DNA of 64,000 nt from SAR202 cluster bacterium (GCA_009392285.1 VFGU01000012.1:164045-228044); one strand, 5' to 3'. Counted from the first letter of the stretch, positions 11,071 through 31,975 are shown. Made by a program: numbers and translations. The notes: generated by a model from the sequence alone, not told the origin.

Positions 11071-12048
11071 ATGAGTAAAAGTATATATGTAATTACAGGT
11101 TCTTTGGGATTTGTTGGTTTCAATCTTTCTAAATTTATAATTGATAGTGGCCATAGTGCAATTGGCATAGATATTGATAATAATTCTGACCCATTGAATG
11201 GCTGGAGGCATAAAGAGTTGCAAGGAATTGGGGTTGAAACCCTTAAAGCAGACATTTCAGATAAGTATCAGATTGAATCTGTTGGTAATAAATTAAGTAA
11301 AATTGGGAATGTAAAAAGTATATTTCATTTGGCGGGCCTTGCTGGAGTTAGAAAATCCATTGATAATCCCGATCAATATTATAATGTAAATTTAAGAGGT
11401 ACTTTTAATGTGCTGCAACTGTTTGAATCAGTGGGTGCAGAATCTTTAGTATTTTCTTCAACTTCAAGTGTTTATGGGAATATTCATGCAGAACATTTCT
11501 CTAAAGAAACTGACTCCTTAGATACAATTTCTCCATATGCAAGTTCAAAATTAAGTGCAGAAAAACTATGCGAGTTATTTTCTAATTTATATAAATTAAA
11601 TATTTCTGTATTGAGGTATTTTACAGTATATGGAGCAGCGGGAAGACCTGATATGAGTATATTGAAATTCATTGATTTAATTTATAAAAATAAACCTATA
11701 ACAATATTTGGAGATGGAAATCAGGAAAGAGACTTCACTCATATTTCTGATATATGCAAAGGTACATATGACAGTTCAAAATTAAAAGGTTTTAATTTGA
11801 TAAATTTGGGGAGATCAAATCCAGAAAAATTAATTAATGCTGTAAGAGTAATTGAAGAAAAATTAGGCAAAAAAGCAAAAATCGTCTATAAGCCTCAGAA
11901 TGAAATCGATGTAAATAGAACATCGGCGGATATATCAAATTCCAAAAAATTGATTAATTGGGATCCTACAGAAAGTATTGAATCTGGGATTTCTAATACA
12001 GTTGATTGGTATAAAGAAAATAAAGAATCTTTAGAAAAATTAGGTTGA
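11071..12048 (+). CDS. NAD-dependent nucleotide-sugar epimerase/dehydratase
   Basis: Rossmann motif VITGSLGFVG and catalytic YASSK. Confidence 0.85.
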   Translation: MSKSIYVITGSLGFVGFNLSKFIIDSGHSAIGIDIDNNSDPLNGWRHKELQGIGVETLKADISDKYQIESVGNKLSKIGNVKSIFHLAGLAGVRKSIDNPDQYYNVNLRGTFNVLQLFESVGAESLVFSSTSSVYGNIHAEHFSKETDSLDTISPYASSKLSAEKLCELFSNLYKLNISVLRYFTVYGAAGRPDMSILKFIDLIYKNKPITIFGDGNQERDFTHISDICKGTYDSSKLKGFNLINLGRSNPEKLINAVRVIEEKLGKKAKIVYKPQNEIDVNRTSADISNSKKLINWDPTESIESGISNTVDWYKENKESLEKLG

Positions 12049-17122: not shown

Positions 17123-18298
17123 ATGAATAGTTTGAAAACAGATGTGATAGTCATAGGGTGTGGGCCAGGAGGCGCACAGACTGCAAGAAATTTATCTAGA
17201 AAAGGATTTTCTGTGGCATTGCTTGATTATAGGCTGAAGGTAGGAGATAAGTTATGCACAGGAATAGTTGGCACAGAGATGCTAAATCATTATCCAGAAG
17301 TTTCAAATTATGTTCTCAATAGATCTAGATCTGCAAATATTCATTGTGACAAAGATTATTTTTTAACAATTGAAAAAAATACAACTCAAGCTTTAATTAT
17401 TGATCGGGAGAAATTTATAAGGAATATTGCAATTGAGGCCGAAGATTCTGGAACTATACTGAGATTTCAACGATTGGTTAGTAATTTTGAGATATCTGAT
17501 GATGGTGTTGAAGTTTATGCAAAATATGATGGGGATATAGAGAAGTATAATGCCGATGTCTTGGTGATAGCATCAGGATATGGTTCAAAGTTAGCAAAAC
17601 GTGCTGGCTTTGGTTTAAGTGAGCATTATATATATGGATATCAGACTAAATTAAAGAATGTTGATGTTGATAAGGTAAATGTTTTTTCAGGAGACCCTCT
17701 TCCTAAAGGGCACTTTGGTTGGGTAGTTCCGACTTCTAAAAATAAAGGATATTGTGGAATATTAGGTAAAGAAAAATTGCAAAATAATGGCCTTGAATTT
17801 CTTTTAGATATGCAACAGAAATTTAATTTTGATATAGAAGGAAAAACAAAAGTTTGGGGCATACCTATAAGTCCAGTTGATAAAAAATCAAGAAATCGAT
17901 CATTATTAGTTGGTGATGTAGCAGGCCAAGTTAAACCCACAACAGGAGGAGGGATATATTTTGCTATGAGATCAGCAGATGTTGCAGCTGAGGTTATAAA
18001 TGATTCTTTATTAACTAGAGATTTTTCAGAAGAGCATTTTAATTCTTACTCCAAAAAATGGAATAATATATTTAAGAATGAATTGAGAATCGGATTTTTT
18101 GCTAGACAATTTTATGAAAGTCTAAATAGTGATGATATAAAGAATATTCTAAATCACATAGAAGAATCGGATCTTATCTCTAAAGATATCAATTTTGATT
18201 GGCATTCAAAAATTGTAATGATGGCATTTAAGACAAAAATTAAGTCTTATTTAAAAGGCAAAATGTTAAGTAAATTTAAAAGTTTAACTTTTAATTAA
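17123..18298 (+). CDS. FAD-dependent geranylgeranyl reductase family oxidoreductase
   Basis: DVIVIGCGPGGAQTA and VGDVAGQVKPTTGGGI. Confidence 0.8.
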   Translation: MNSLKTDVIVIGCGPGGAQTARNLSRKGFSVALLDYRLKVGDKLCTGIVGTEMLNHYPEVSNYVLNRSRSANIHCDKDYFLTIEKNTTQALIIDREKFIRNIAIEAEDSGTILRFQRLVSNFEISDDGVEVYAKYDGDIEKYNADVLVIASGYGSKLAKRAGFGLSEHYIYGYQTKLKNVDVDKVNVFSGDPLPKGHFGWVVPTSKNKGYCGILGKEKLQNNGLEFLLDMQQKFNFDIEGKTKVWGIPISPVDKKSRNRSLLVGDVAGQVKPTTGGGIYFAMRSADVAAEVINDSLLTRDFSEEHFNSYSKKWNNIFKNELRIGFFARQFYESLNSDDIKNILNHIEESDLISKDINFDWHSKIVMMAFKTKIKSYLKGKMLSKFKSLTFN

Positions 18299-20173
18299 AT
18301 TAATTATCTTTTGTGCAAGTTTACTTGATGATAGTCCGTGATAATCAATAACTTCTTCATTGGTGCCACTTTGTGGAATTTCATCTATCCCTATACTAGA
18401 TAGTTTTGTAGAGGAAATATCTAGGTTTTTAATTATATTAGCAATAAATTTTTCTCCAAAGCCCCCTTCTATATAATGATCATCAATTGTAATCACATGC
18501 CTGAAATCTTTTATTTGACCTTTTATCCAATTCAATGAAAATTTATTAAGCCAAGGAAAAGAAATTAATTTAGGATTTATATTATTTTCTACAAGAAGTT
18601 CTTTTGCTTTCCAAAGTTCTGCAAATATTAGAGGGCTATAGCAAAATATTGCTACTTCTTCTCCTTCAGAAATTACTGTACCCTCTCCCATTTTTATTAC
18701 ATTTTTATTTGGATATTTAAAAGGCAGATCAATAGGCAATGAGCACAATCTTATATATATATTATTGGTTGAATTTACAGCGTATTTTACTGCTAATGCT
18801 GTTTCTATTTCATTTAAAGGTTGTATCATTTCTAAATTAGGAATACCTGACATACTAGCTATATCTCTCACTGCTTGATGGGAGTGACCTGGTCCTCCCG
18901 GAAGTAAACCCGCTAGAGAACCTACATAAATTATTTTGGTTTTTTCTGTGGAATTATTATAGATCTGTTCATTTGGTCTACTAGTTAAAAAACTAGAAAA
19001 TGAATGAACAAATGGTATATAACCCTCTTTTGCAAACGATCCTGCCTGAGAAACCATGTCTTGTTCAGCAATTCCGCACTCAAAAAATCTATTTGGAAAT
19101 TTCTTTTCAAATTCAATTAATCCAGTGTCTAAAATTAAATCCCCATCTAATGCTATTATTCTTTCATTAGAAGATGCTTCATTAATGAGAGCTTTCGAGT
19201 AAGCATTAATAAGATTTTCGCTACCATTATTAACTTTCTTCTTATTTATAACTTCTTTATTTGAAAAATTAAAACTGTAATCTATGTTATTTGAATTGAT
19301 ATAATCATTTAATCTATCAACCAACTCTTTTATACCCTTGTTATAAGTTTCTTGATCTATTGATCCACTATGGAATTGATAAAATTCATCATCATTTAAC
19401 ATTGTTCCTTCCATAAATGAAACCCCACTTCCTTTCACAGTGTCTAAAATTATTACAGAGGGTTCATTTTCTTTAGAAATCCTATTAAATGCTTTTGAAA
19501 ATTCTTCAACATTATTACCGTCACAACGGACTGTATTAAGTCCAAATGATTTAAATTTACCTTCTAGATCTTTTAGGTCACTAGTGGTGCTAACTTTTCT
19601 GTCAGACTGAAATTTATTACTATCAACAAGGATTACTAATTCTTCCATTTTTTCTTGAACTAATCTGTTCATAGACTCCCATATTTGACCTTCTTGGAGT
19701 TCTCCATCGCCAGTCATAACGAAAACTTTACAATTTTTGTTTTTTAATCTGTTTGATTTTATTATTCCTTTTGCTTTAGAGATTCCCATTCCTAAAGATC
19801 CAGTGTTGGTAAAAATATTTGGAGTATTTATATCTGGATGACCAGGTAGGCCATCAATTTTTCTTAATTTATCAATTAATGAGAAGTTTAATTGCCCTAA
19901 AGATATCATTGCGCAATACATTGCTGGAGCGTCATGGCCTTTTGAAGAGAAGAAATATACATTTTCTTCCTTATTACTTATTTCTCCCATCACCCATGAC
20001 ATAACATCAATAGAACTAAACGAAGATCCAATATGACCTGACCCAGCATTACATATCATATAAAGTATATTTATTCTGCATAAATCAGAAAAAATTTTAT
20101 TTTTATGTAAAGGGTCTATTTCAATTGATAGCAAAGACTCAAAACTTTCTTTGTTTATATAAGATAGATTCAT
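18284..20173 (-). CDS. Fused (N+C section) transketolase-family TPP enzyme
   Basis: GHIGSSFS and GDGELQEGQIWES (PP domain), ECGIAEQDMVSQAGSFA (Pyr domain); 629 aa. It is the last gene of the neuB-led minus-strand string. Confidence 0.8.
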   Translation of the reverse strand: MNLSYINKESFESLLSIEIDPLHKNKIFSDLCRINILYMICNAGSGHIGSSFSSIDVMSWVMGEISNKEENVYFFSSKGHDAPAMYCAMISLGQLNFSLIDKLRKIDGLPGHPDINTPNIFTNTGSLGMGISKAKGIIKSNRLKNKNCKVFVMTGDGELQEGQIWESMNRLVQEKMEELVILVDSNKFQSDRKVSTTSDLKDLEGKFKSFGLNTVRCDGNNVEEFSKAFNRISKENEPSVIILDTVKGSGVSFMEGTMLNDDEFYQFHSGSIDQETYNKGIKELVDRLNDYINSNNIDYSFNFSNKEVINKKKVNNGSENLINAYSKALINEASSNERIIALDGDLILDTGLIEFEKKFPNRFFECGIAEQDMVSQAGSFAKEGYIPFVHSFSSFLTSRPNEQIYNNSTEKTKIIYVGSLAGLLPGGPGHSHQAVRDIASMSGIPNLEMIQPLNEIETALAVKYAVNSTNNIYIRLCSLPIDLPFKYPNKNVIKMGEGTVISEGEEVAIFCYSPLIFAELWKAKELLVENNINPKLISFPWLNKFSLNWIKGQIKDFRHVITIDDHYIEGGFGEKFIANIIKNLDISSTKLSSIGIDEIPQSGTNEEVIDYHGLSSSKLAQKIINLIKS

Positions 20174-20174
20174 A

Positions 20175-20933
20175 TTAATATGGCCTTTTATTTATTACAG
20201 GAAGTGTCGCTGTGCCGTTAGAGATTAGAATATTTGCTAATTCCCAATCTTCTTCAATATTTAAATCAAACCCTTCATCATTCATTGTAATAAAAGGGAT
20301 TACAGTATCTCCAGATATATTATTATATTTATTTACTGTTTCAGTGTATGCAATCTCTAAACTAGCATTTTGAACATATACCTCTGGCAGAGAGGGATAC
20401 TGCGAACTATGTAATGGCTGACCCAGAGGCCCTTTTTCTTCAAGGTTAACAAATGGAACCATATAATCATCTTCTATTTTCCACATTTTACATGGATGCT
20501 GAAGGCACTTTTCTACAGCTCTAAGAGAATCGCATTTTACAGAATTGAATAAATCAAAAGCCCTCAATATGGTTTCAGGTTTTCTGAATGGACTTGTTGG
20601 CCTCAAAATACTAAAGATTTTATAATCGGAACCATTATCTTTTAGATAATCTAAGGAATGTTTTACCCATTCTATATCTGGAGAGGTATCCTCTGCGTAT
20701 TCTTTAGGACGCATGAATGGAACATTAGCACCATAATATTCTGCTATCTCTTTTATATCTTCAGAGTCTGTAGAGACAATTATTTCATCAAATATATTAC
20801 TATTTGATGCAGATTGTATCGTATAAGCAATTAATGGGTGCTCTTTTAATTTATTTATATTTTTGTTTTTAACCCTTTTTGAGCCTGATCTTGCAGGTAT
20901 AAGTGCTATAGTTTTATTGCCCATATTTACCAA
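20175..20933 (-). CDS. neuA: Acylneuraminate (nonulosonate) cytidylyltransferase
   Basis: IALIPARSGSKRVKNKNI and LRPTSPFR. Confidence 0.88.
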   Translation of the reverse strand: MVNMGNKTIALIPARSGSKRVKNKNINKLKEHPLIAYTIQSASNSNIFDEIIVSTDSEDIKEIAEYYGANVPFMRPKEYAEDTSPDIEWVKHSLDYLKDNGSDYKIFSILRPTSPFRKPETILRAFDLFNSVKCDSLRAVEKCLQHPCKMWKIEDDYMVPFVNLEEKGPLGQPLHSSQYPSLPEVYVQNASLEIAYTETVNKYNNISGDTVIPFITMNDEGFDLNIEEDWELANILISNGTATLPVINKRPY

Positions 20934-21730
20934 GCTGTCCAGCCACCATCAATTATCATATTACTTCCAGTTATATATGATGATGCCGAACTAATTAGGA
21001 ATTGTATTGCCCCATTATATTCAGATTCATTTGCCATTCTTCCTAAAGGAACTTTTGAAGAGTAATTTTCTATAAATTCTTTATCTTGATTATCTAAAAC
21101 ACCTCCTAAAGTTAGAGTGTTTACTCTCACATTTTTATTGCCCCAATATGTGCTTAAGTACCTAGTCATATTAAGGATTCCAGATTTTGAAGCCGAATAA
21201 GATATAGGTTTGTTAAAGGTTTTTTCTCTATATTCATAAATTCTTTGGTCTGGAGAAATAATTCCATAATGAGATGAAATATTTATAATAGAACCAGAGT
21301 TATTTTTGGCCATCTCGGCACCAATTATCTGGCAACTAAGGAAGACACTTTTTAAGTTAGCCTCCATTATTTTATCCCAAGCCATCTCTGGATAATCTTC
21401 GAAAGGCCCATTTTGATCTTCTTCAGATCCTGGAGGTGAATCTAAGGCAGCATTATTAATTAAAGCATCAGGAACTCCAAGTTCATTAATCACTTGATTC
21501 AGTGACTCAGATATATCTTCCTTTTTTGTTAGATCAGTTTTAAAGAAAAAATAATTTTTATCTAGTAATTTATTAAGATTATCGGAGGGCGTATTTATAT
21601 CAAAATTGCAAATCACTGCACCATTATTTATAAGGTGATTTGTATAAATAGAGCCAAGTTTTCCGCTCCCACCTGTTAAAATAATGATCTTATCTTTTAT
21701 GTCAAAGATATTTTTTGATTTATTATTCAT
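20927..21730 (-). CDS. Short-chain dehydrogenase/reductase
   Basis: TGGSGKLGS Rossmann motif, NISS, and YSASK catalytic motif. Confidence 0.85.
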   Translation of the reverse strand: MNNKSKNIFDIKDKIIILTGGSGKLGSIYTNHLINNGAVICNFDINTPSDNLNKLLDKNYFFFKTDLTKKEDISESLNQVINELGVPDALINNAALDSPPGSEEDQNGPFEDYPEMAWDKIMEANLKSVFLSCQIIGAEMAKNNSGSIINISSHYGIISPDQRIYEYREKTFNKPISYSASKSGILNMTRYLSTYWGNKNVRVNTLTLGGVLDNQDKEFIENYSSKVPLGRMANESEYNGAIQFLISSASSYITGSNMIIDGGWTAW

Positions 21731-21740
21731 ATCTAGAAAG

Positions 21741-22262
21741 TCATTGATTTAATCTTTCGATTATATCGCAAACCTCTCTAACTGCACCATTCCCACCTTT
21801 GAGAACAGTTACATATTTAGCGAAATTAATTATTTCTGGGTGTGAATCCCTAACAACAATCGGTAGACCGCAAATCTTCAAGGCTCCAATATCATTTATA
21901 TCATTACCTACGAATGCTATATTTTTTAAATCAATTTTTTGATTTATAGAAATCTCTTTTAGTTTTTCTTCCTTGTGCGCTAAACCGTATTCACAATCTA
22001 TGTTTAATTTTTCTGCTCTTTTTTTTACACTTTCATTGGTTTCAGTGGAGAGTATTACCTTTTTTATTCCTAGGCTATCTAATTTACTTAACCCAAATCC
22101 ATCTAATTTGGATGATTTAACCATTTCTTCGCCTTTATCGTTTGAGTAGACGTAGTTATCTGTAAAAACCCCGTCAAAATCAAAGGCTACAAGTTTTATA
22201 TTTTTGAATAGATTTTTAGTTTTTTCTGGAATTTCATTTATGTGATCTAAATAATTTTCCAT
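21741..22262 (-). CDS. KdsC-type HAD phosphatase (ulosonate-phosphate phosphatase family)
   Basis: AFDFDGVFTDN motif I and VGNDINDIGAL motif; 173 aa, the KdsC / KDN-9-P phosphatase size class. Confidence 0.8.
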   Translation of the reverse strand: MENYLDHINEIPEKTKNLFKNIKLVAFDFDGVFTDNYVYSNDKGEEMVKSSKLDGFGLSKLDSLGIKKVILSTETNESVKKRAEKLNIDCEYGLAHKEEKLKEISINQKIDLKNIAFVGNDINDIGALKICGLPIVVRDSHPEIINFAKYVTVLKGGNGAVREVCDIIERLNQ

Positions 22263-22266
22263 TAGT

Positions 22267-23316
22267 TTATTCTATATCTTCAATCTGAAGAGTTTCATCC
22301 AGTTTGTAATCTTTCGTTAGTTTTTTACCTAGTACTTTTTCTAGCTCATTTGGTGAGATACCGTCTCCAGGAGACTTAAATGATAAATCATCTAAATTAA
22401 TAATAGAGCCTTTAGTTAAATCTTTTTTAGCAACTATTTTTTTGCCCATTTTAAATCTCGCAAGTTTTTCCTCTGATAACAATTTTTTTTCAGGATCACC
22501 TAATGAGAGCCTTACATTTTCTAATTCATCAATAAGTTCTTTTAATAGTTTAGGAGTTAACGAAAACTGATGGTCGGTTCCTTTTTGGGATCTATCTAGA
22601 GTAAAGTGTTTTTCTATAAACCTTGCACCTAACGCATAAGCTGCAACAGGTATTGAAATGCCTGAATCATGGCCTGAGTAACCTATTACAGTGCTAGGAA
22701 ATTCATCTCTATAGGTGCTGATTACATTAAGATTTATTGTTATTGGCTTTGCTGGATATATAGAAGTACATTGCATAATTACCACATTCGGGTTTATATC
22801 AATAACAAAATCAAAAGTTTTTTTAACTTCCCAAAAATCAGCAGCCCCAGTACTTATAATCATTGGTTTTTCAAATTTTGCTACCTTTTCTATTAACGGA
22901 AAAGTAGTTAGATCTCCAGATGCAATCTTGAAGCAATTAAGCCCCATTTCATTCAAGAAATCTGCACTTTTTAGATCAAATGGAGTTGCAAAGAATGTTA
23001 TTCCATTTTTTTCAGAGAATTTAAAGAGTTCTTCAAAATCATTATCACTTAACTCTAATTTGTCTCTATGCTCACCATATGTTGATGCAAAACTTTGAGG
23101 GCCAACATAAGATGAATTAAACATTTCTGAAGTAAATAATTCTTTATTATCCCTTTTTTGAAATTTTACCGCTGAAGCCCCACTTTCTTTTGCAGAAATT
23201 ATCATTTCTTTTGCATTATCTAAGTTGCCTTGATGATTATTGCCTATCTCTGCAATTACATAACATCTTGCTTCATCGTTAACCAATGTTTTATTAAAAA
23301 TGATTTCTCTAGCCAT
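22267..23316 (-). CDS. neuB: N-acylneuraminate/nonulosonate (-9-phosphate?) synthase with SAF domain
   Basis: IAEIGNNHQG, the NeuB TIM-barrel pattern, and a C-terminal SAF domain (KKIVAKKDLTKGSII). Confidence 0.9.
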   Translation of the reverse strand: MAREIIFNKTLVNDEARCYVIAEIGNNHQGNLDNAKEMIISAKESGASAVKFQKRDNKELFTSEMFNSSYVGPQSFASTYGEHRDKLELSDNDFEELFKFSEKNGITFFATPFDLKSADFLNEMGLNCFKIASGDLTTFPLIEKVAKFEKPMIISTGAADFWEVKKTFDFVIDINPNVVIMQCTSIYPAKPITINLNVISTYRDEFPSTVIGYSGHDSGISIPVAAYALGARFIEKHFTLDRSQKGTDHQFSLTPKLLKELIDELENVRLSLGDPEKKLLSEEKLARFKMGKKIVAKKDLTKGSIINLDDLSFKSPGDGISPNELEKVLGKKLTKDYKLDETLQIEDIE

Positions 23317-23366
23317 CTTCTCTACAATTTAATTAAAATACGATTTTACCTAATTAGATAGATATT

Positions 23367-24527
23367 TTGAAAATAGTTTACATTACAAACGCCAGATTAC
23401 CGACCGAAAAGGCTCATGGAGTCCAAATTTTGAAAATGATTAAAGCGTTTTCAGGTTTAGGAAACCAAACTGTATTGGTTCACCCAAAACGACATCAGAG
23501 AGAAATTTCCCATAAAACTGATGTATTTGATTTTTATCAAATGGAAAAGGTTTTTCAAGTTAAATCTTTAAAATTTATTGATCCTTATATTTTTCGCCCA
23601 TTTATGCCCAAATTTTTATATAGATTTTTCTCATTTATAATAGATTTTATCTGGGGCATTTTTTCGATTAATTATACTAAGAAATATAGCCCCGATTTCT
23701 TGATTTTTAGGGATAATACTCCATTTAGTTTATTTTTTTCATATTTTTCTGGAATTCCTAGTGTAATTGAGTTTCATGATATGCCCCCACTAATATCAAA
23801 AAGAATATTCAAATTTACTTTAAAACGAGCAAAAAAAATTAAGTGTTTTAGTGTTACAAAAAAATTATCTTTGGATTTAGAGAATTATTTTGGTCTTGAT
23901 GGAGGTTCAATTAAAGTTTTGCAGGATGCTGTAGACTTAGAAGATTATATAGGTAAACCTAAAATTAAGAGTTCTTCAGACATGCCAATTTTAACCTATT
24001 GCGGCTCTTTAAGTCATGAAAAAGGAGTAGATTTATTATTAGAAACTGCAACTAATTTAGAGGGTTTTCAAATAATAATAGTTGGAGGACTAGGCGCAGA
24101 GGTAAAAATTTATTCTGAAAAAGCCAAAAAAATGAATATTGATAATATTAGGTTTATTGGCCAAGTATTACCTTCAGAAGTCCCTAATTACCTCAATTCT
24201 TCAGATATTTTGTTATTACCTTCAAGTGCAAAATCAAAGAAATCTAGAGAATATACTTCTGCAATGAAACTTTTCGAATATCTGGCATCAGGGATCCCAA
24301 TTATTGCATCTAATATACCCTCAAATACTGAAATTTTAACTGGAGATAAAAATTGCATTTTATTTAATCCTGATGATTCGGACAGTCTAGTTCGAGAAAT
24401 AAAAAAACTTTGGCAAAATTATGACTTGAGAGAAAAGATATCTCATAATTCTATTGAATTATCTAAAGAGTTTACCTGGGAAAACAGATGTAAAGTAATA
24501 ATTGACGAGATAAAACAAATCAAATGA
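23367..24527 (+). CDS. Glycosyltransferase family 4 (GT-B)
   Basis: EKGVDLLLE and the EX7E-type region SAMKLFEYLASGIPIIAS. TTG start. Confidence 0.85.
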   Translation: MKIVYITNARLPTEKAHGVQILKMIKAFSGLGNQTVLVHPKRHQREISHKTDVFDFYQMEKVFQVKSLKFIDPYIFRPFMPKFLYRFFSFIIDFIWGIFSINYTKKYSPDFLIFRDNTPFSLFFSYFSGIPSVIEFHDMPPLISKRIFKFTLKRAKKIKCFSVTKKLSLDLENYFGLDGGSIKVLQDAVDLEDYIGKPKIKSSSDMPILTYCGSLSHEKGVDLLLETATNLEGFQIIIVGGLGAEVKIYSEKAKKMNIDNIRFIGQVLPSEVPNYLNSSDILLLPSSAKSKKSREYTSAMKLFEYLASGIPIIASNIPSNTEILTGDKNCILFNPDDSDSLVREIKKLWQNYDLREKISHNSIELSKEFTWENRCKVIIDEIKQIK

Positions 24528-25651
24528 ATTCATCTAATAAAAAACTTATAGCCATATTCGCACCTTTCCTAAATCCTGTAGGTGTAAAAAGAGCTACTTT
24601 TGGCCTTGCAAAAGAATTTTCTAAAAGTGGTTATGAGATAGATATGCTAAGCATACATAAAGAGTGGAATGATTTAGATTTATTAGAAAATATGAGATTA
24701 ATTAGGCTTTCCGACATTTTTAATAATTTTCCGACTACTGGTTATATTAAATTCAGATTAGTTTCTTTTCTTATCGCAGCCAGAACCATTTTTACTATTT
24801 CTAGTTATCTTAAGAAGAATAAACCAGGAATACTTTTTGTATCGATGATGCCAGTAGTCGCATGGCTTGGTTTGAAGATATCGGGGCAAAGATCATCTAC
24901 AAAGTTGGTAATTAGTGTCCAAGGTTTTCCAATAAATAATTTCTTTAGAAGATTTTTATGGAGAAGGGTTTTTCAGGATTCTCAAGATGTAATAGCTGAG
25001 TCAGAAAGTTTGAAAAGTAAATTAGAAAATATGACAGGGAATAGTAATCTAAATTATATTTACAATCCGCATTTTGAAAATCAGCATGATTTTGATGCAA
25101 ATTTTAATAATATAAATGAGGAAAATGATTTCATATTAGGCCTAGGACGACTTACTAAGCAAAAAAATTTTAAATTATTAATTCATGCATTTAGTAATTT
25201 GACTAATATCGATAATCTTGACTTATTAATTATTGGCGATGGAGAGGAAAAGGCTAATTTAGATAAGTTAATTGAAAAGTTAGATTTATCATCAAGGGTT
25301 AAATTGTTAGGTGAGATAAAAAATCCATTAGGATATATAAAGAAAGCACGAATATTGATTATTCCATCTTTGTGGGAAGGCCTTCCAAGAGTTGCTGTTG
25401 AGGCTCAAGCCCTCAGAACACCTATTATTTCTTCATGTCACGAAGGAGGGCTTGGTGAGATATTGATGAATGGTGATGCAGGCCAAATTACTGGAAAAAA
25501 TGATCCAATAGAAATGAAGAATGCTATTGAAAAATATATACAAGATGAGGATCTTGCTAAGAGTCATGCTGATTTTGCCTTTAAGAATTTGAATAGGTTT
25601 TCGCTTTCTTCTTCAGCAAAAAAATATCTAAATATTTTTTCGAGGTACTGA
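24524..25651 (+). CDS. Glycosyltransferase family 4 (GT-B)
   Basis: GRLTKQKNF and PSLWEGLPRVAVEAQALRTPIISS. Confidence 0.85.
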   Translation: MNSSNKKLIAIFAPFLNPVGVKRATFGLAKEFSKSGYEIDMLSIHKEWNDLDLLENMRLIRLSDIFNNFPTTGYIKFRLVSFLIAARTIFTISSYLKKNKPGILFVSMMPVVAWLGLKISGQRSSTKLVISVQGFPINNFFRRFLWRRVFQDSQDVIAESESLKSKLENMTGNSNLNYIYNPHFENQHDFDANFNNINEENDFILGLGRLTKQKNFKLLIHAFSNLTNIDNLDLLIIGDGEEKANLDKLIEKLDLSSRVKLLGEIKNPLGYIKKARILIIPSLWEGLPRVAVEAQALRTPIISSCHEGGLGEILMNGDAGQITGKNDPIEMKNAIEKYIQDEDLAKSHADFAFKNLNRFSLSSSAKKYLNIFSRY

Positions 25652-25652
25652 T

Positions 25653-26570
25653 ATGTACAAAGTTGATGATATTACAGTATTAATAGCAACAAAAGACAGG
25701 GTTGATGAAATTGAAAGAGCAATTCAAAGTTCGATAAACCAATCACTTAAAGTTAATATAGTGGTTCTCGATGATTCTTCTGAAATAAATATAAAAGAAA
25801 AACTTGAAGATAAATTTAAAGATAAGCCTATTAAATGGATGAGATCTAGTGCGCCATCTGGAGTAGCTGGGGCAAGAAATAAGCTTGTTGAAGGGTCTGA
25901 GGGGTCTATAATGGTTTTCTTAGATGATGACGCTTATTTTACTGATAAATATTCTCTAGAAAATATTATAAAAAAATTTTCCACTTCTGATGAAATTGCA
26001 GGAATGGCTTTCAAAATAATATTAAGACAAAATGATGATGGCCTTCAAATTCCTTTTAATAGGTTAAAAAGATTTTTAAATAAAAATATTCATAATGAAG
26101 AGTCTGATGTGTCTTATTATGTCGGCGCAGGGCATGTGTTATTAAGAGAAACTTTTGAAAAAGTTGGGGGCTATGACTCTGAACTTTTTTACGGACTTGA
26201 AGAACTGGATATTAGTTCCGAGATAATAAAAGAAGATAAAAAAATAATTTATTTTCCTCAAGTTCAAGTAATACACGAACCCAAGAAATCGGTTGTAGAT
26301 AAGAAGAATAAATTAAAGGATGAAGCTTATTACAGCATAAGAAATAGAATTTGGGTTTCTTATAAACATCTTCCAGCAATGTATCTAGTAGTACACCTAA
26401 CAGTATGGGGTTCATTTTATTTTTTGAAGTCATTGCTTAAATTCCAATTAGGGAAATTTTTTATCGCTACTTTTGAAGGTTTTAAAAAGTTGAATTCCAA
26501 AGATAGGAAGCCATTTAATTCTAGTGCCCTAAAGTATCTTAAGAGAAACAATGGGAGGCTTTGGTATTAA
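25653..26570 (+). CDS. Glycosyltransferase family 2 (GT-A)
   Basis: VLIATKDR, VVLDDSS and FLDDDAYF (DXD). Confidence 0.85.
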   Translation: MYKVDDITVLIATKDRVDEIERAIQSSINQSLKVNIVVLDDSSEINIKEKLEDKFKDKPIKWMRSSAPSGVAGARNKLVEGSEGSIMVFLDDDAYFTDKYSLENIIKKFSTSDEIAGMAFKIILRQNDDGLQIPFNRLKRFLNKNIHNEESDVSYYVGAGHVLLRETFEKVGGYDSELFYGLEELDISSEIIKEDKKIIYFPQVQVIHEPKKSVVDKKNKLKDEAYYSIRNRIWVSYKHLPAMYLVVHLTVWGSFYFLKSLLKFQLGKFFIATFEGFKKLNSKDRKPFNSSALKYLKRNNGRLWY

Positions 26571-27628
26571 ATATGGATGATTATTTAAAGGTTGGAATTT
26601 CAGTAATAATACCTACACGAAATGAAGAAGATTACATTGAAGAATGTATAAATTCTCTTTTAAATTGCCGGAGTATTCAGGCATCTAATTTTATTGTTGA
26701 TTTTATAATTGTAGATGGAATGAGCACAGATAAAACAGTAGATATTATTAAAGAAAAATTTGGTCATTTGAATTTAAAAATTTTAAATAACCCTAATCTT
26801 TATCAGTCATATGCCATGAATATTGGAATTGAAAATAGCAATAATATAAACGAAACTTCATTGATTATTAGAGCCGATGCTCATTCGAAATATCCTCAAG
26901 ATTATATTTTTCAATGTTGGCAAGCCTCCTTTAATACTTGGGGAGGGAATGCGGGATCTGTTCAAAAGGCAGTAGGAACTAATTTCTTTACAAGGATTGT
27001 TGCTGATGTAATGAATTCAGGGTATGCGATGGGGGGTGTTAGTTATAGAAATATAAAATATGATCCATTTAATCCAACAACTCAATATATTGATTCGGAT
27101 ACAGCATATCTTGGCAGCTGGAAAAGATCAGATTTAATTGAGTTAGGAGGTTTTAATGAAGAGTTTCAAATTAATGAAGATTATGAATTAAATATTAGAT
27201 TAAGGAATAATGGAAGGAAGGTAATTGTAGTTTCAGATTTAATTGTTGAATACTTTGTTAGAAGTTCTTTATTCGGTTTGATAAAACAATTTTTTAGATA
27301 TGGTTTATGGAAAACTAAGACATTGTCTTTACATCCTGACTCTTTAAAATTAAGACAGTTAGCTCCTGTTTCATTTGTATTATTTTTATTTGTATTAGGA
27401 ATTGGAAATTTAATTTTTGCGGGTGACTTATTATTATTTATTAATGCATCATCAATATTGATAGGGACTCTTTGGTTGATTATGATTTTATTAATTTGGA
27501 AAAATTCTTCAAATTTATTCAGCATCTTTTTGATTCCTTTTATTGTGCTATCAATGCATATTTCTTGGGGTCTAGGATTCTTGTATGGTCTTATAAGATG
27601 GGCTAGAGGAGGATGGAATAAATCTTGA
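26561..27628 (+). CDS. Glycosyltransferase family 2, ExoA-like, with C-terminal TM helices
   Basis: ISVIIPTRNEE, IIVDGMSTD, RADAHSKYPQDY, and about three C-terminal TM segments. Confidence 0.8.
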   Translation: MVLNMDDYLKVGISVIIPTRNEEDYIEECINSLLNCRSIQASNFIVDFIIVDGMSTDKTVDIIKEKFGHLNLKILNNPNLYQSYAMNIGIENSNNINETSLIIRADAHSKYPQDYIFQCWQASFNTWGGNAGSVQKAVGTNFFTRIVADVMNSGYAMGGVSYRNIKYDPFNPTTQYIDSDTAYLGSWKRSDLIELGGFNEEFQINEDYELNIRLRNNGRKVIVVSDLIVEYFVRSSLFGLIKQFFRYGLWKTKTLSLHPDSLKLRQLAPVSFVLFLFVLGIGNLIFAGDLLLFINASSILIGTLWLIMILLIWKNSSNLFSIFLIPFIVLSMHISWGLGFLYGLIRWARGGWNKS

Positions 27629-28239
27629 GATCTAGAACTTATAAATTAAAAAGACCACTTGATATATTAATGATAATAGGTGGATTACTGCTTCCTTTAT
27701 TATGGCCTCTGTGGTTAATAGTAATATTCATTATCCCCTTGTTAATTTGGATAGAAGATAGGGGCCCAATTTTTTATTCTCAAGATAGAATTGGTAAAAA
27801 TAAAAAAGTTTTTAAAGTTATTAAGTTTAGGACTATGATACCTGATGCAGAGAAGGTTTCTGGTGCAGTATGGTCCACAAAAGATGATCCTAGAATTACT
27901 AAAATTGGACATATTCTCAGAAGGACAGCACTAGATGAGATTCCTCAATTACTCAATATATTAAAAGGTGAGATGAGTTTTGTTGGGCCTAGAGCTGAAC
28001 GACCAGAACTTCATGAAAAGTTTGCAAAAGAGATTCCGGGTTTTGATAAAAGATTAGATGTTACTCCTGGGTTATCAGGATTAGCACAGATAAATGGCTC
28101 ATATGATTTAGACCCTAAGGATAAGTTAGTATTTGATATTGATTATTCACAAAAGATGAGTTTATTTTTTGATATAAAAATAATAATAATTTCTGTATTT
28201 AATAGTATTGCTGCTAAATGGGATCAGCCAGATAAATGA
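27625..28239 (+). CDS. Small (PglC-like) polyprenyl-phosphate phosphoglycosyl transferase
   Basis: Bacterial sugar transferase motifs RPLD, DEIPQLLNILKGEMSFVGPRAERPE; 204 aa with one N-terminal membrane segment. Confidence 0.88.
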   Translation: MRSRTYKLKRPLDILMIIGGLLLPLLWPLWLIVIFIIPLLIWIEDRGPIFYSQDRIGKNKKVFKVIKFRTMIPDAEKVSGAVWSTKDDPRITKIGHILRRTALDEIPQLLNILKGEMSFVGPRAERPELHEKFAKEIPGFDKRLDVTPGLSGLAQINGSYDLDPKDKLVFDIDYSQKMSLFFDIKIIIISVFNSIAAKWDQPDK

Positions 28240-28241
28240 TA

Positions 28242-31046
28242 TTATTCTGCCCTTACTTCTAATATCTTAACTTCAAAATAAATAGTTGCATTAGGGGGGA
28301 TTAAGTTTTTGACTCCTACAGATCCATATGCCATTTCAGGAGGTATAACTATCCTAGCTATACTACCTTCTCCTAGGCCTAAAATCCCACTTTCAAAACC
28401 TTCTACTGCTAGACCCATTCCAGCCTTAAAAGTTAAAGTATTTACATCTTCAAAATATGAACTATCGAATATGCATCCATTTGAAAGCCATCCGGTATAA
28501 TCAAGTTTTACAACATTTCCAGGTGATATTGTTAAGCTGCCTTTATTTAACTCTTGCTTAACGCCAACAATGACTCCATTATCTAGTTCATTATTGTATA
28601 AAACGTTACTATCTTCGAATTTAGGTTTATCGCTCGGATATTCTTCATTCCTACAAATGATGTCCCATTCAGGTACTATTTCCCCTTTTATTATTCCGAG
28701 ACTTTCATCCCAAAAATTTCTCCAGTTTGGTGGTATAACTTTTTTCCATGTTTGAATTAAAGGTTCTGCATTAATAGGATCATTCATTAGTAGGGCAATC
28801 CTTATTTTAAGCTCAAGAGTTTGGATTGAATTAGGGGATAATTCCTCTAATTTATTAAGAATATTTATAGCAACATCTAAATTATTGGCATCATATGCTG
28901 CTAAGCTAGTATAAACGCTTGCGGCTCCAAAATGAATGTTGAAATGATCAGGCTCAACTTCTATCCCTTTTCTGTATTCCTCAGAAACTAGCCCAACTAA
29001 AGAAGTATATGCTTCAGCAAATTTATCCGCTTCACTCGCCATCCCAAGCATTTTCTCCATATCCCTCCTTACTATGTACATAAGCTCTTGCCTTCCATAG
29101 TTAGATAACGGTTCAAATTTGTTTATATTTTCTTGAGCCTCAATCAATGAAGTTGGAGATCCAAGAGGAGGGGTGACCTTCGCAGCCTGAAATGGGATAG
29201 CAACATAAGACCTAATGACTAATATGGTTACTATGGGGATAATTATTGCTGCAACAATAACCATAGAGTCTTTTACAAATGCCTGTTCTTTGGTTTCTTT
29301 AGTTACATTAATTTCTAATTCATCCTTTTTACCAAAACCTTGCTCTGTTCTTGTCAGAAATGCAATTAATAGCATTATTTGTAGAAATATTGAAGATACT
29401 GCGAAATTAAACATTGAAAAAGTTACATAAGAAATAAAGAAGCACCCTAAAAGCATCCAAAAAATATTTTCTGAATCGCGCCTTAAGGCCCTTTTTGTGA
29501 TTAAGATTCCAATATAAATCCAGAATGATATAAGTGCTATAAAACCAATGATTCCTGAAGTTGCCATTATATGAAGAACTCTGTTGTGAGCCCTATCAAA
29601 ATGAGGTTTGTCATCTGCCATATTTTCATTATTTAAATTTATGTATTTATAATGAAGAACAGGAAAATTTTCAGGCCCAATACCAAATATTGGATTATCG
29701 ACAAACCCTTTCCATGCTGCACTCCAAGCAAAACCTCTTTCTCCAATATCAAATCCAGACCTGAATGGATAAGATATTCCTGATCCAAATAATGAAATAA
29801 ATTTCATGGTAGAAGTGCACTCTCGGAAGGAATCTCTTTCGGTCAGCCAAAAATAAGTTAATAATTGATCTGAACAAATCCTTGATTTCATTTCAGGTTC
29901 AGATATTTTTCCAGTCTTTACCATATGTTCTAGCAATTGCTCCATAGAAAGTCCTAACTTTCCAGATGATTTCTCTATTTCATTATATTCTTGAACAACT
30001 GAAAGTCCGGGGATTATAGAGGCTATTTCAGACCTTTCTTTATCAGCATTAAGCCCTTTCCAATTGGGACTTTCTTCAAAAACTTCTATAGGGAAATACT
30101 TAGAAAGAACCTCGATTCTTAAATCTTCTCTTTGAGATTCAATTGTGGTTGTTATGAAAAAGAAGGTCGGAATTAAAATGATTATCAGAGTTACCGGAGC
30201 CAATGTAAATTTTCTAATTTTTTTATAAACGATTGACAGCATAATAGATATTAATAGAATTGAAGCCGCTATACCGATTAATGATGCCCTAGATCCTGAA
30301 CTTAAAATCGTCCATATAGAAATAAGAGAAGCAATTCCAGCAATTACCACATAAGTTTTAGATGATTTTTTTAGAGAAGCATATGTATTAAAAATCGATA
30401 ATCGATAATTTATTTTGAATTCTCTATAAATTAAAGCTATTGAACTAAAAGTCACCATTGATAAATATGTTGCTAAATAGGATGGATTTCCAATTGTAGA
30501 CTCTACCCTTTCTCCTCCTGTATAAGATCCCTCAGGATTAACAACTAGAGGAAAGATGTCCAAGCCTCCTACTAAAGGTATTACTAAATCTAGAGACTCA
30601 AAAAAACCTAAAGTAGCAACGATTAAGCCGACAAAAGTATTTACCTTCCATAAATTTATCCAAGATAATTTAGTCTTTAGAACTGAAAAAGCTATCAATA
30701 TGAAAATGAGCCAATGAAAATATTCAACAACTCCTTCCATTCTCTCCCAATTACCCCAAAAACTATTTTGGGGGCTAGAACCAAATAATCCGGCTAATGC
30801 TTGCGATAGCACAAAGAGTGAAAAAAGTAATATTAGGGTACTTTTTTCAGGTAAATATTTATTGTTAACAGTTATAAGGATTAGCCATAAGCATGATATT
30901 GAATAAATTACCCCTCTAAACCATAACGACTTCCCCACTACAAAAGGGAAAACAGTTTCAGGAGAAACTACTAGAGGCAGGAATAGTATTAACGAGAGTC
31001 CTAAGAAGATTAATTTAGGAAAGTATGTATTTATAAATATTCTCAT
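28242..31046 (-). CDS. Wzy_C (O-antigen ligase / O-oligosaccharyltransferase family) polytopic membrane protein fused to a helical-repeat region and a C-terminal FKBP-type peptidyl-prolyl isomerase
   Basis: More than 10 TM helices, a large loop ending in HFDRAHNRVLHIMATSGIIG (Wzy_C signature), and a further TM near residue 600. A roughly 200-aa helical region follows. The FKBP domain reads GNVVKLDYTGWLSNGCIFDSSY..FKAGMGLAVEGFESGILGLGEGSIARIVIPPEMAYG..IPPNATIYFEVKILEV (about 28245-28575). Confidence 0.8.
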   Translation of the reverse strand: MRIFINTYFPKLIFLGLSLILFLPLVVSPETVFPFVVGKSLWFRGVIYSISCLWLILITVNNKYLPEKSTLILLFSLFVLSQALAGLFGSSPQNSFWGNWERMEGVVEYFHWLIFILIAFSVLKTKLSWINLWKVNTFVGLIVATLGFFESLDLVIPLVGGLDIFPLVVNPEGSYTGGERVESTIGNPSYLATYLSMVTFSSIALIYREFKINYRLSIFNTYASLKKSSKTYVVIAGIASLISIWTILSSGSRASLIGIAASILLISIMLSIVYKKIRKFTLAPVTLIIILIPTFFFITTTIESQREDLRIEVLSKYFPIEVFEESPNWKGLNADKERSEIASIIPGLSVVQEYNEIEKSSGKLGLSMEQLLEHMVKTGKISEPEMKSRICSDQLLTYFWLTERDSFRECTSTMKFISLFGSGISYPFRSGFDIGERGFAWSAAWKGFVDNPIFGIGPENFPVLHYKYINLNNENMADDKPHFDRAHNRVLHIMATSGIIGFIALISFWIYIGILITKRALRRDSENIFWMLLGCFFISYVTFSMFNFAVSSIFLQIMLLIAFLTRTEQGFGKKDELEINVTKETKEQAFVKDSMVIVAAIIIPIVTILVIRSYVAIPFQAAKVTPPLGSPTSLIEAQENINKFEPLSNYGRQELMYIVRRDMEKMLGMASEADKFAEAYTSLVGLVSEEYRKGIEVEPDHFNIHFGAASVYTSLAAYDANNLDVAINILNKLEELSPNSIQTLELKIRIALLMNDPINAEPLIQTWKKVIPPNWRNFWDESLGIIKGEIVPEWDIICRNEEYPSDKPKFEDSNVLYNNELDNGVIVGVKQELNKGSLTISPGNVVKLDYTGWLSNGCIFDSSYFEDVNTLTFKAGMGLAVEGFESGILGLGEGSIARIVIPPEMAYGSVGVKNLIPPNATIYFEVKILEVRAE

Positions 31047-31051
31047 TGATT

Positions 31052-31975
31052 TTAAGAGTCCTTTAGATGACTAATTGTTTTTTTGAGTCCTTCTTGTAGG
31101 CTAGTTTTAGGTTTCCAATTCGATATTCCTAAAGCTTTAGAATTATCTAATTCAATCCCAAATATATCCCCTTCCCTAGAATTACTCATAACTGGTTCAT
31201 CTTTGTAATCAACTATTTCTTTTAGGCTATTGAATATATCAATAGTTTTTGTTTTTTGCCCAGAGCATAGATTATAAGTTCCAGTTATATTCCCTTCTGT
31301 AATTTTTTCAATGAAATCCACAACATCATCAATGTATATATAATCTCTGTATTCATTTCCTGTGCCAAAGATAGTCACTGGTTCATTTTCTAGCATTTTT
31401 TTTCCAAATATTGATACTACCCCTGCTTCTCCGTAAGGATTTTGGCCAGGACCAAATACATTACTTGGCCTTATTACAGTAGAAGGCAGATTAAATTTGT
31501 CTGAATAATAGGTTAAATATTTTTCAAAACTAGATTTTGACATACCGTAGGGACTTTGAGGGTCAACCGTGTCATCTTCATTGAATTTTCTACCAACTTT
31601 CTCTCCATATATTGCTCCACCGGTTGAAAAGAATACAAATTGAGTTAATTTTAGCTCCAAGGCAGATTTTAATATATTTAAGGAGCCTCCAACGTTCACA
31701 TCATTGTCTAGAACTGGGTCTTTAGAAGATATAGCCACACTTGCCTGTGCTGCAAGATGAATAATTTTGTCAGGCTTGATTTCTTGAAAATAATCTTTAA
31801 TTTTGTCCGACCTAATATCTATTTTTTTGTACTTAATATCTAAATTTGTTTTAGGTTCTTCTATATCTAGTACATATATTTCATTATTTTTGTGTCCAGA
31901 TAACTTAGATGTTAAAGCAGATCCAATAAAGCCAGATCCACCTGTAATTAGTATTTTATTTCTTATATTTGTCAC
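31052..31975 (-). CDS. NAD-dependent nucleotide-sugar epimerase (GalE-like)
   Basis: GTG start, ITGGSGFIGS, and YGMSK. Confidence 0.85.
   Translation of the reverse strand: MTNIRNKILITGGSGFIGSALTSKLSGHKNNEIYVLDIEEPKTNLDIKYKKIDIRSDKIKDYFQEIKPDKIIHLAAQASVAISSKDPVLDNDVNVGGSLNILKSALELKLTQFVFFSTGGAIYGEKVGRKFNEDDTVDPQSPYGMSKSSFEKYLTYYSDKFNLPSTVIRPSNVFGPGQNPYGEAGVVSIFGKKMLENEPVTIFGTGNEYRDYIYIDDVVDFIEKITEGNITGTYNLCSGQKTKTIDIFNSLKEIVDYKDEPVMSNSREGDIFGIELDNSKALGISNWKPKTSLQEGLKKTISHLKDS

Follow-up and report, generated by a model that had tools for sequence, protein, structure and literature searches.

The 64,000-nucleotide stretch of SAR202 cluster bacterium DNA analyzed here (GCA_009392285.1 VFGU01000012.1:164045-228044; "the window" means this whole stretch) carries on its minus strand, at 18284-23316, a five-gene operon that is the form without aldehyde dehydrogenase (ALDH) of a widespread bacterial cassette, not a single odd operon. 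The genes encode a NeuB-family ulosonate synthase, a phosphatase of the haloacid dehalogenase (HAD) kind, a short-chain dehydrogenase/reductase (SDR), a CMP-ulosonate cytidylyltransferase (CT) and a transketolase-like (TK-like) enzyme dependent on thiamine diphosphate (ThDP). Judged from their sequences, the five genes may act in a single pathway that makes an undescribed 3-deoxy-2-ulosonic acid in CMP-activated form, trimmed of C8-C9 and destined for the adjacent glycan-assembly genes, an interpretation to which we give a little less than an even chance. The window corresponds to C12:164045-228044 of a 751-kb genome that is 55.6% complete (contigs are labeled C), and a homology search identified marine Dehalococcoidia/Dehalococcoidales metagenome-assembled genomes (MAGs) as the closest relatives.

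An earlier note on this DNA had described a five-gene nonulosonic acid (NulO) string in this region. All of its open reading frames (ORFs) are found where the note had placed them, and Pfam confirms the family of each of the five proteins above the gathering score (Table 1). From the synthase to the TK-like gene, the successive spacings are 4, 10, -7 and 1 nt, and the genes therefore form an operon-like string. In NCBIfam, none of the five proteins reaches the curated cut-off for a named equivalog. Taken together, the profile scores indicate that all five are true superfamily members but not recognised orthologues of any characterised enzyme.

The TK-like protein aligns over its full length with human TKT (4kxu, 207 bits), and all transketolase equivalogs in NCBIfam score below cut-off against it (NF004559 gives 358.8 with a cut-off of 488). 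We aligned the window protein with human TKT, the genome's own Tkt and 16 family members. In human numbering, the family retains H37, K75, H77, H110, D155, N185, K244, H258, E366, F389 and F392, which include the ligands of ThDP and the metal, the catalytic histidines and the activating glutamate. In the window protein R318 has become I, S345 D, H416 L, D424 P and R474 S, and the same sites are altered in 17 of 17 family members (R318 to I, L, V or M; S345 to D; H416 to L; R474 to S or P; D424 to P or T), whereas the housekeeping Tkt of the same genome retains R, H, D and R and has an intact phosphate site. Compared with canonical transketolases (human 4kxu/3mos; split type), the enzyme thus shares the three-domain architecture and the cofactor and catalytic residues; of the features that define EC 2.2.1.1, it has the three domains, the ThDP/metal sites and the catalytic His, but the phosphate-binding residues and Asp424 are absent. 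By this alignment it is a TK-like enzyme without a canonical sugar-phosphate site, all four phosphate-binding residues (R318, S345, H416 and R474) being replaced. With these residues lost, action after dephosphorylation is indicated. New family-invariant residues have appeared beside the catalytic positions (D81, K133, K135, H430 and R436), and D349 is another. The earlier note had allowed that this gene might prove to be the only, housekeeping tkt of the genome; a canonical tkt is encoded elsewhere, at C13:7552-9546 (PF00456, 415 bits), and the TK-like gene lies in a sugar-nucleotide operon apart from it.

A homology search with the TK-like protein returned thousands of relatives at about 50% identity. 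Scanning one genome per species gave at least 593 matching stretches, and the locus counts in this text refer to the best 80 of these, in which many partner shortfalls are contig ends. The 80 loci come from Pseudomonadota, Acidobacteriota, Gemmatimonadota, Chloroflexota, Actinomycetota, Planctomycetota and Bacteroidota, as well as from Cyanobacteriota/Melainabacteria, Verrucomicrobiota, Spirochaetota, Nitrospirota, Myxococcota, Thermodesulfobacteriota and Patescibacteria. The usual order, all on one strand, is NeuB-(phosphatase)-SDR-ALDH-CT-TK. Same-strand partners of the TK-like gene (80 loci) are CT in 68, SDR in 60, ALDH in 57, NeuB in 55 and a KdsC-type HAD in 23-24, with CT being the gene most often adjacent to it. 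A fuller arrangement, NeuB-HAD-SDR-ALDH-(extras)-CT-TK, is present in gammaproteobacterium, Thiohalomonadaceae MAG and Polaromonas contexts. The window's NeuB, HAD, SDR, CT and TK are orthologous to those of the six-gene cassette (44-70% identity, same order), and the NeuB and TK trees both group the window clade with cassette proteins. The co-occurrence of SDR and TK with this NeuB clade, which the earlier note had suggested looking for across genomes, is thus found with the same gene order in more than 12 phyla. A full-text literature search retrieved no paper describing a transketolase-containing ulosonic acid cassette.

The window synthase falls below the NCBIfam cut-offs for both NeuB/NnaB (TIGR03569, 322.7 against 399.65) and PseI (TIGR03586, 235 against 340.25), and it is approximately equidistant from PseI 8h2c (160 bits), Neisseria NeuB (158) and SpsE (153). 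In the NeuB tree, 52 of 54 cassette NeuBs, the window's included, lie across a 99* branch from Neisseria NeuB and Campylobacter PseI, on whose side second NeuB paralogues of the same loci are grouped. The synthase therefore stands outside ordinary NeuB and PseI; the earlier note had counted clustering within ordinary NeuB against its proposal. It retains E25, K53, Q55, K129, S132, S213, H215, H236 and D247, and the phosphoenolpyruvate (PEP) and metal residues of Neisseria NeuB are kept in all 54 cassette NeuBs. Compared with Neisseria NeuB and Campylobacter PseI, which serve non-phosphorylated routes, the cassette synthases have the same fold and the same PEP/metal residues (E25, K53, Q55, K129, S132, H215 and H236), but they form a separate clade, have no Pse/Leg precursor genes and differ in the sugar pocket. 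There, in 54 of 54, E134 is replaced by Asp, F288 by an invariant Lys within a KMGK motif, and Arg314, which contacts N-acetylmannosamine in NeuB/NnaB, by Ser or Ile (Ser in the window). The basic residues of the pocket are invariant with or without ALDH, and the loop after beta2 carries a common QKRDN...TYGEHR motif. We take both motifs to resemble human NANS, a likeness that serves here as a lead only. The preference of the human enzyme for N-acetylmannosamine 6-phosphate has been attributed to a loop in the same part of the fold (PMC8208679). The NeuB-family synthase probably condenses PEP with a hexose 6-phosphate.

The phosphatase scores below the cut-offs of the models for its kind: 113.7 bits for KdsC (NF007019, cut-off 208), 98.8 for Kdn-9-phosphate phosphatase (NF058599, cut-off 180) and 103.6 for TIGR01670 (cut-off 106.95). 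Its matches among solved structures are 3mmz (93.5 bits), KdsC structures (77-88 bits) and BT1713 3e81 (64 bits), and its DxDG motif reads FDFDGV. This KdsC/YrbI-type HAD is a probable ulosonate-phosphate phosphatase. In 17 loci an unrelated HAD_2-type phosphatase is located just downstream of the TK-like gene; KdsC-type enzymes stand beside the cassette in 24 loci, and no locus has both. This mutual exclusion has the form of non-orthologous replacement and argues for a phosphatase step as part of the pathway. Together, the exclusive phosphatases and the altered NeuB sugar pocket make a phosphorylated intermediate likely. The phosphorylated-substrate route proposed in the earlier note thereby gains indirect support, to which the separate NeuB clade also contributes.

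The nearest described system is the Kdn-9-phosphate route of Bacteroides thetaiotaomicron, Prymnesium parvum and vertebrates (NANS/NANP/CMAS; PMC6200933), which likewise uses a NeuB-family synthase, a C0 HAD and a CMP-transferase with no NeuC-type epimerase, and in which a phosphorylated aldose is used and the phosphate is later removed. The cassette differs by its added SDR and TK-like protein, by a phosphatase well under the Kdn-9-phosphate phosphatase cut-off, and by the lack of a detected mannose-6-phosphate isomerase. Searches for type I/II mannose-6-phosphate isomerase, PGI/PMI and NanE found none in four genomes of the window clade, MAGs that are incomplete and in which non-orthologous isomerases are possible; NeuC-type epimerase was sought only in the window's own, 55.6%-complete genome and was not found there. 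Mannose 6-phosphate, and hence true Kdn, is therefore not obviously available. GlmS is encoded in all four clade genomes (in the window at 3514-5319 on the minus strand, 587 bits, above cut-off), and glucose 6-phosphate or a glucosamine-derived 6-phosphate is an equally possible acceptor. An ordinary Kdn or sialic acid pathway with SDR and TK as mere passengers would need nothing further, as NeuB, a KdsC-type phosphatase and CT alone complete a Kdn-type route and the corresponding three enzymes suffice in B. thetaiotaomicron and P. parvum (PMC6200933). We nevertheless consider this very improbable: SDR and TK are conserved with the NeuB clade in the same order throughout those phyla, the housekeeping Tkt is separate, and the isomerase is missing from what was found in the four clade genomes. 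For the same reasons, namely tailoring enzymes conserved with the synthase and no such isomerase in these genomes, plain Kdn, which the earlier note had offered as a product, is unlikely as the end product.

A different explanation places the SDR and the TK-like enzyme before the synthase, where they would make an unusual aldose acceptor for NeuB. In its favor, NeuC, NanE and mannose-6-phosphate isomerase were not found in the genomes searched for them, which leaves room for an uncommon acceptor, and a ketose released by the phosphatase might in principle serve a phosphate-independent transketolase. We consider this explanation quite unlikely, because the phosphatase is of the KdsC/Kdn-9-phosphate phosphatase family, which acts on ulosonate phosphates, the invariant basic residues of the NeuB sugar pocket suggest a phosphorylated acceptor, and CT is the gene most tightly linked to TK. 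The TK-like enzyme, moreover, cannot bind sugar phosphates canonically, and the earlier suggestion that it and the SDR build a sugar-phosphate acceptor is not supported, given the loss of all its phosphate-binding residues.

The SDR has its best NCBIfam scores with PRK09186 (170.9) and with models of polyol and sugar-acid dehydrogenases, namely GolD/DthD, gluconate 5-dehydrogenase, D-mannonate oxidoreductase, PtmA (126) and KduD, without reaching any of their cut-offs. It carries the motifs TGGSGKLG, NNAA and YSASK. Among 61 cassette SDRs, 60 have Asp or Glu at the end of beta2, and S153, Y178 and K182 are invariant. The acidic residue indicates a preference for NAD and hence an oxidative role. 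Two of the nearest models, gluconate 5-dehydrogenase and KduD, oxidise a secondary hydroxyl adjoining a terminal CH2OH, and we propose that the SDR oxidises the C8 hydroxyl. In the CT, a P-loop-like motif of the PARxGSK type is present (PARSGSKRVKNKN), the score for PseF is 145.4 (TIGR03584, cut-off 205.7), and the nearest solved structures are the CMP-Neu5Ac synthetases 9ftb, 6ifd and 1eyr (75-82 bits), which assigns it by similarity to the NeuA/PseF kind rather than to KdsB. An SDR of the PRK09186/PtmA kind also adjoins a CMP-NulO synthetase in the NulO locus of Campylobacter (the flagellin-modification pair PtmA and PtmB), although the operon's SDR reaches only 126 bits against the PtmA cut-off of 350. 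To our knowledge, that locus has amino-sugar enzymes and no transketolase.

From sequence and context we infer what the substrate is, which hydroxyl is oxidised, which way the ThDP reaction runs and in what order the enzymes act, as follows. The NeuB-type synthase would join PEP and a hexose 6-phosphate into a nonulosonate 9-phosphate, from which the KdsC-type HAD phosphatase would strip the phosphate. The NAD-dependent SDR would then oxidise the C8 hydroxyl, leaving a HOCH2-CO-CHOH- tail. In a Kdn- or Neu-type skeleton, C7 and C6 counted from the tail end would be D-threo (3S,4R), which is the geometry of a transketolase donor. The TK-like enzyme would next cut the C7-C8 bond and take C8-C9 off as a glycolaldehyde unit, so that a seven-carbon ulosonic acid bearing a C7 aldehyde would remain. 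The remainder of its substrate would be a carboxylated pyranose rather than a phosphate ester, which would explain the remodelled phosphate pocket. CT would make the CMP-sugar, perhaps already before the SDR and TK-like steps. In six-gene cassettes the dedicated ALDH would convert the C7 aldehyde to a second carboxylate (a di-acid of 222 Da); the window clade, without ALDH, would end with the C7 aldehyde or its hydrate (206 Da) or, once reduced, with a 3-deoxy-heptulosonic acid alcohol (208 Da). Known nonulosonic routes (Neu, Leg, Pse and Kdn) involve, as far as we know, no ThDP chemistry. It is possible, though on balance doubtful, that the TK-like protein is the first ThDP-dependent tailoring enzyme of sialic-type sugars, clipping C8-C9 off an 8-keto-nonulosonate, and that in the ALDH-less clade a C7 aldehyde or alcohol replaces the second carboxylate.

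3-Deoxy-D-lyxo-heptulosaric acid (Dha) was considered as the product and rejected on stereochemical reasoning, since trimming of a Kdn-type sugar gives L-arabino at C4-C6, not D-lyxo.

Several points weigh against the trimming pathway. Its SDR oxidation site and ThDP reaction direction are pure inference. A donor-cleaving transketolase needs an acceptor aldehyde or some other release of the C2 unit, for which the model has no candidate, and where the ALDH is lacking the model assigns no fate to the reactive aldehyde that would result. Searches of the window clade gave no source of mannose 6-phosphate, a cassette phosphatase is present in only 41 of the 80 loci, and the HAD, synthase, CT and TK scores all lie under the curated cut-offs of the named NCBIfam equivalogs.

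The ALDH is where the window departs most plainly from the six-gene cassettes of other phyla. The window clade (the window and loci L012, L013, L014 and L015 of the scan) is 100*-supported and long-stemmed in the TK tree, is placed in the same way by the NeuB tree, and is ALDH-less throughout. Cassette ALDHs are mutually 44-100% identical (median 58%), and the best ALDH of the window's genome is only 36% identical to them, so by sequence a cassette-type ALDH is absent from both the operon and the rest of the genome. Cassettes lacking the ALDH are scattered over at least five places in the TK tree, a pattern suggesting that a different end product is tolerated. As for what the ALDH acts on in other phyla, its nearest models are two dehydrogenases of 2-keto-3-deoxy acid semialdehydes, GucD (412 bits) and 2,5-dioxovalerate dehydrogenase (400 bits), with neither cut-off reached. 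Directly after the ALDH gene, Polaromonas has genes for an enolase-superfamily protein and an ApbA-type reductase, the former of which fits a new sugar carboxylate, and in Streptomyces a NeuB-SDR-TK trio lies close to a class-III aminotransferase gene within a natural-product-like cluster. The kinship of the ALDH, its Polaromonas neighbors and the Streptomyces trio all fit an aldehyde on the sugar itself.

An unlinked, general ALDH might still oxidise the C7 aldehyde in the window clade, which would then make the same di-acid as the six-gene cassette. The genome does encode other ALDHs, such as the one at C12:49072-50472 (PF00171, 536 bits), and only 55.6% of it is at hand. This enzyme is, however, the one with just 36% identity to the cassette ALDHs. 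Five further ALDH-less genomes (1.2-6.1 Mb) have no cassette-ALDH orthologue, their best proteins being 32-38% identical, and the ALDH-less cassettes stand at a minimum of five places in the tree. We therefore regard an unlinked substitute as improbable.

The ALDH also bears on chain extension or branching, the reverse of trimming, in which the SDR would make a keto or aldehyde group on the ulosonic acid once its phosphate is gone and the TK-like enzyme would add a C2 unit from a non-phosphorylated donor such as hydroxypyruvate, lengthening or branching the acid sugar. Keto-sugars are known to receive C2 branches from ThDP enzymes, for example YerE in yersiniose synthesis. The lost phosphate site would suit a non-phosphorylated donor and acceptor equally well, and the ALDH-less form would need no fate for an aldehyde. 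An ALDH in 57 of 80 loci, however, implies an aldehyde as product rather than as substrate; what SDRs of this type oxidise are secondary alcohols, and transketolases accept ketones poorly. As no donor-supplying gene is conserved among the 80 loci either, we rate extension as unlikely.

We found no alignment columns in the CT or the SDR that follow the loss of ALDH. In the TK-like protein, residues 451 and 565 change together, reading E/N in 65 rows, Q/D in 14 and E/D in two, with Q/D in 10 of 14 ALDH-less rows, the window clade among them. As a marker of ALDH loss the Q/D pair is not significant, with three to four of six independent pairs in agreement. A single origin is rejected (approximately unbiased (AU) test, p = 0.0006), and the ALDH-less Streptomyces copy reads E/H.

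Within Dehalococcoidia (a sample of 151 genomes), a TK-like orthologue is found only in the window's own genus and is lacking in three more genera of its family, so that the cassette is an accessory unit that has spread horizontally. For two loci with apparently no NeuB, those of Moorena bouillonii PNG (L027) and Geminicoccus, a NeuB of the cassette type, at 66% and 61% identity, lies at a distance of 18-27 kb. CT-TK-HAD_2 stands as a separate three-gene unit in L027 (8769-13132) and in L073. In the cyanobacterium Gomphosphaeria aponina (L009, 10001-13750), the TK-like gene lies beside isiA-like photosystem II antenna genes and a flavodoxin gene, followed by acyltransferase_3 and HAD_2 phosphatase genes; no NeuB is present within the 18.6 kb examined (10 kb before the TK-like gene and about 6.7 kb after it). 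The Streptomyces trio, NeuB-SDR-TK without CT, HAD or ALDH, comes from the cultured Streptomyces sp. NBC_01237 (linear plasmid NZ_CP108509.1; L102, 10105-13950), where it is surrounded by genes for an HmaS-like glyoxalase-fold protein, an FMN-dependent dehydrogenase, two aminotransferases, an AMP-binding enzyme, RmlD and a LuxR regulator. A Coxiellaceae MAG (L037, 7689-9226) has its cassette ALDH in two ORFs of 264 and 266 aa, from a frameshift or a sequencing error. Next after the TK-like gene, 31 of the 80 loci encode a protein of some 573 aa that matches no Pfam family (e.g. L089, 12717-14438). It may be a dedicated transferase for the cassette sugar; the window clade lacks it, and the window's genome has no homologue.

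The window clade has glycosyltransferases of its own lineage, without orthologues beside cassettes of other phyla. They form an operon divergent from that of the synthase (Table 1), in an arrangement that is syntenic in loci L006/L007, L012, L013 and L015, and the whole glycosylation island is syntenic even in relatives whose TK-like protein is only 57% identical. In the intergenic region between the two operons, promoter-like matches are at the level of chance (27 against 30.6 expected), as is a terminator scan. The large membrane protein beyond the glycosyltransferases has FKBP-type matches at residues 817-933, and its syntenic homologue matches Wzy_C. The earlier note had found no precursor enzymes nearby. 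This stands for aminotransferases and N-acetyltransferases, none of which is encoded in the island, and for NeuC within the available genome; it does not stand for the epimerase/dehydratase family, of which two NAD-dependent members are encoded near the operon, at 11071-12048 and 31052-31975. The latter gene closes the same island, and its product scores 170.5 bits with Epimerase and 145 bits, below cut-off, with the dTDP-glucose 4,6-dehydratase model. At the other end of the operon, the 3' end of the TK-like gene (18284-18298) overlaps a convergent geranylgeranyl-reductase-family gene (17123-18298) by 15 nt; the overlap holds no terminator-like site, and the convergent arrangement is kept in syntenic relatives.

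Table 1. Features of the operon and the adjoining glycosylation genes, in window coordinates
Feature	Coordinates	Strand	Length	Profile matches
NeuB-family ulosonate synthase	22267..23316	-	349 aa	PF03102 261.6 bits; SAF 30.6 bits
KdsC/YrbI-type (C0) HAD phosphatase	21741..22262	-	173 aa	Pfam Hydrolase_3 36.1 bits
Classical, NAD-preferring SDR	20927..21730	-	267 aa	Pfam adh_short_C2 124.2 bits
CMP-ulosonate cytidylyltransferase (CT), NeuA/PseF type	20175..20933	-	252 aa	PF02348 (CTP_transf_3) 82.8 bits
TK-like ThDP enzyme, human-type, full length	18284..20173	-	629 aa	Transketolase_N 74.9, Transket_pyr 88.6, Transketolase_C 47.7 bits
Intergenic region between divergent synthase and glycosyltransferase operons	23317..23366	.	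50 bp	
Divergent operon: GT4, GT4, GT2, GT2, phosphoglycosyl transferase (Bac_transf)	23367..28239	+		Pfam
Membrane protein with C-terminal FKBP domain; NAD-dependent epimerase/dehydratase-family protein	28242..31975	-	934 aa; 307 aa	

Microbial surfaces owe much of their character to nonulosonic acids. The occurrence, in hundreds of species of more than 12 phyla, of a cassette with a transketolase rebuilt without its phosphate site implies a whole class of acidic surface sugars, which standard surveys by 1,2-diamino-4,5-methylenedioxybenzene (DMB) labeling or mass spectrometry would misassign or miss. The five-gene form is in effect a natural "minus ALDH" experiment, in which the contrast between its product and that of the six-gene form would reveal what the TK-like step yields. 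If the proposed pathway is true, one cassette with or without one gene would provide a natural pair of new bacterial surface sugars, a result that would bear on the coat of the abundant, streamlined marine Dehalococcoidia.

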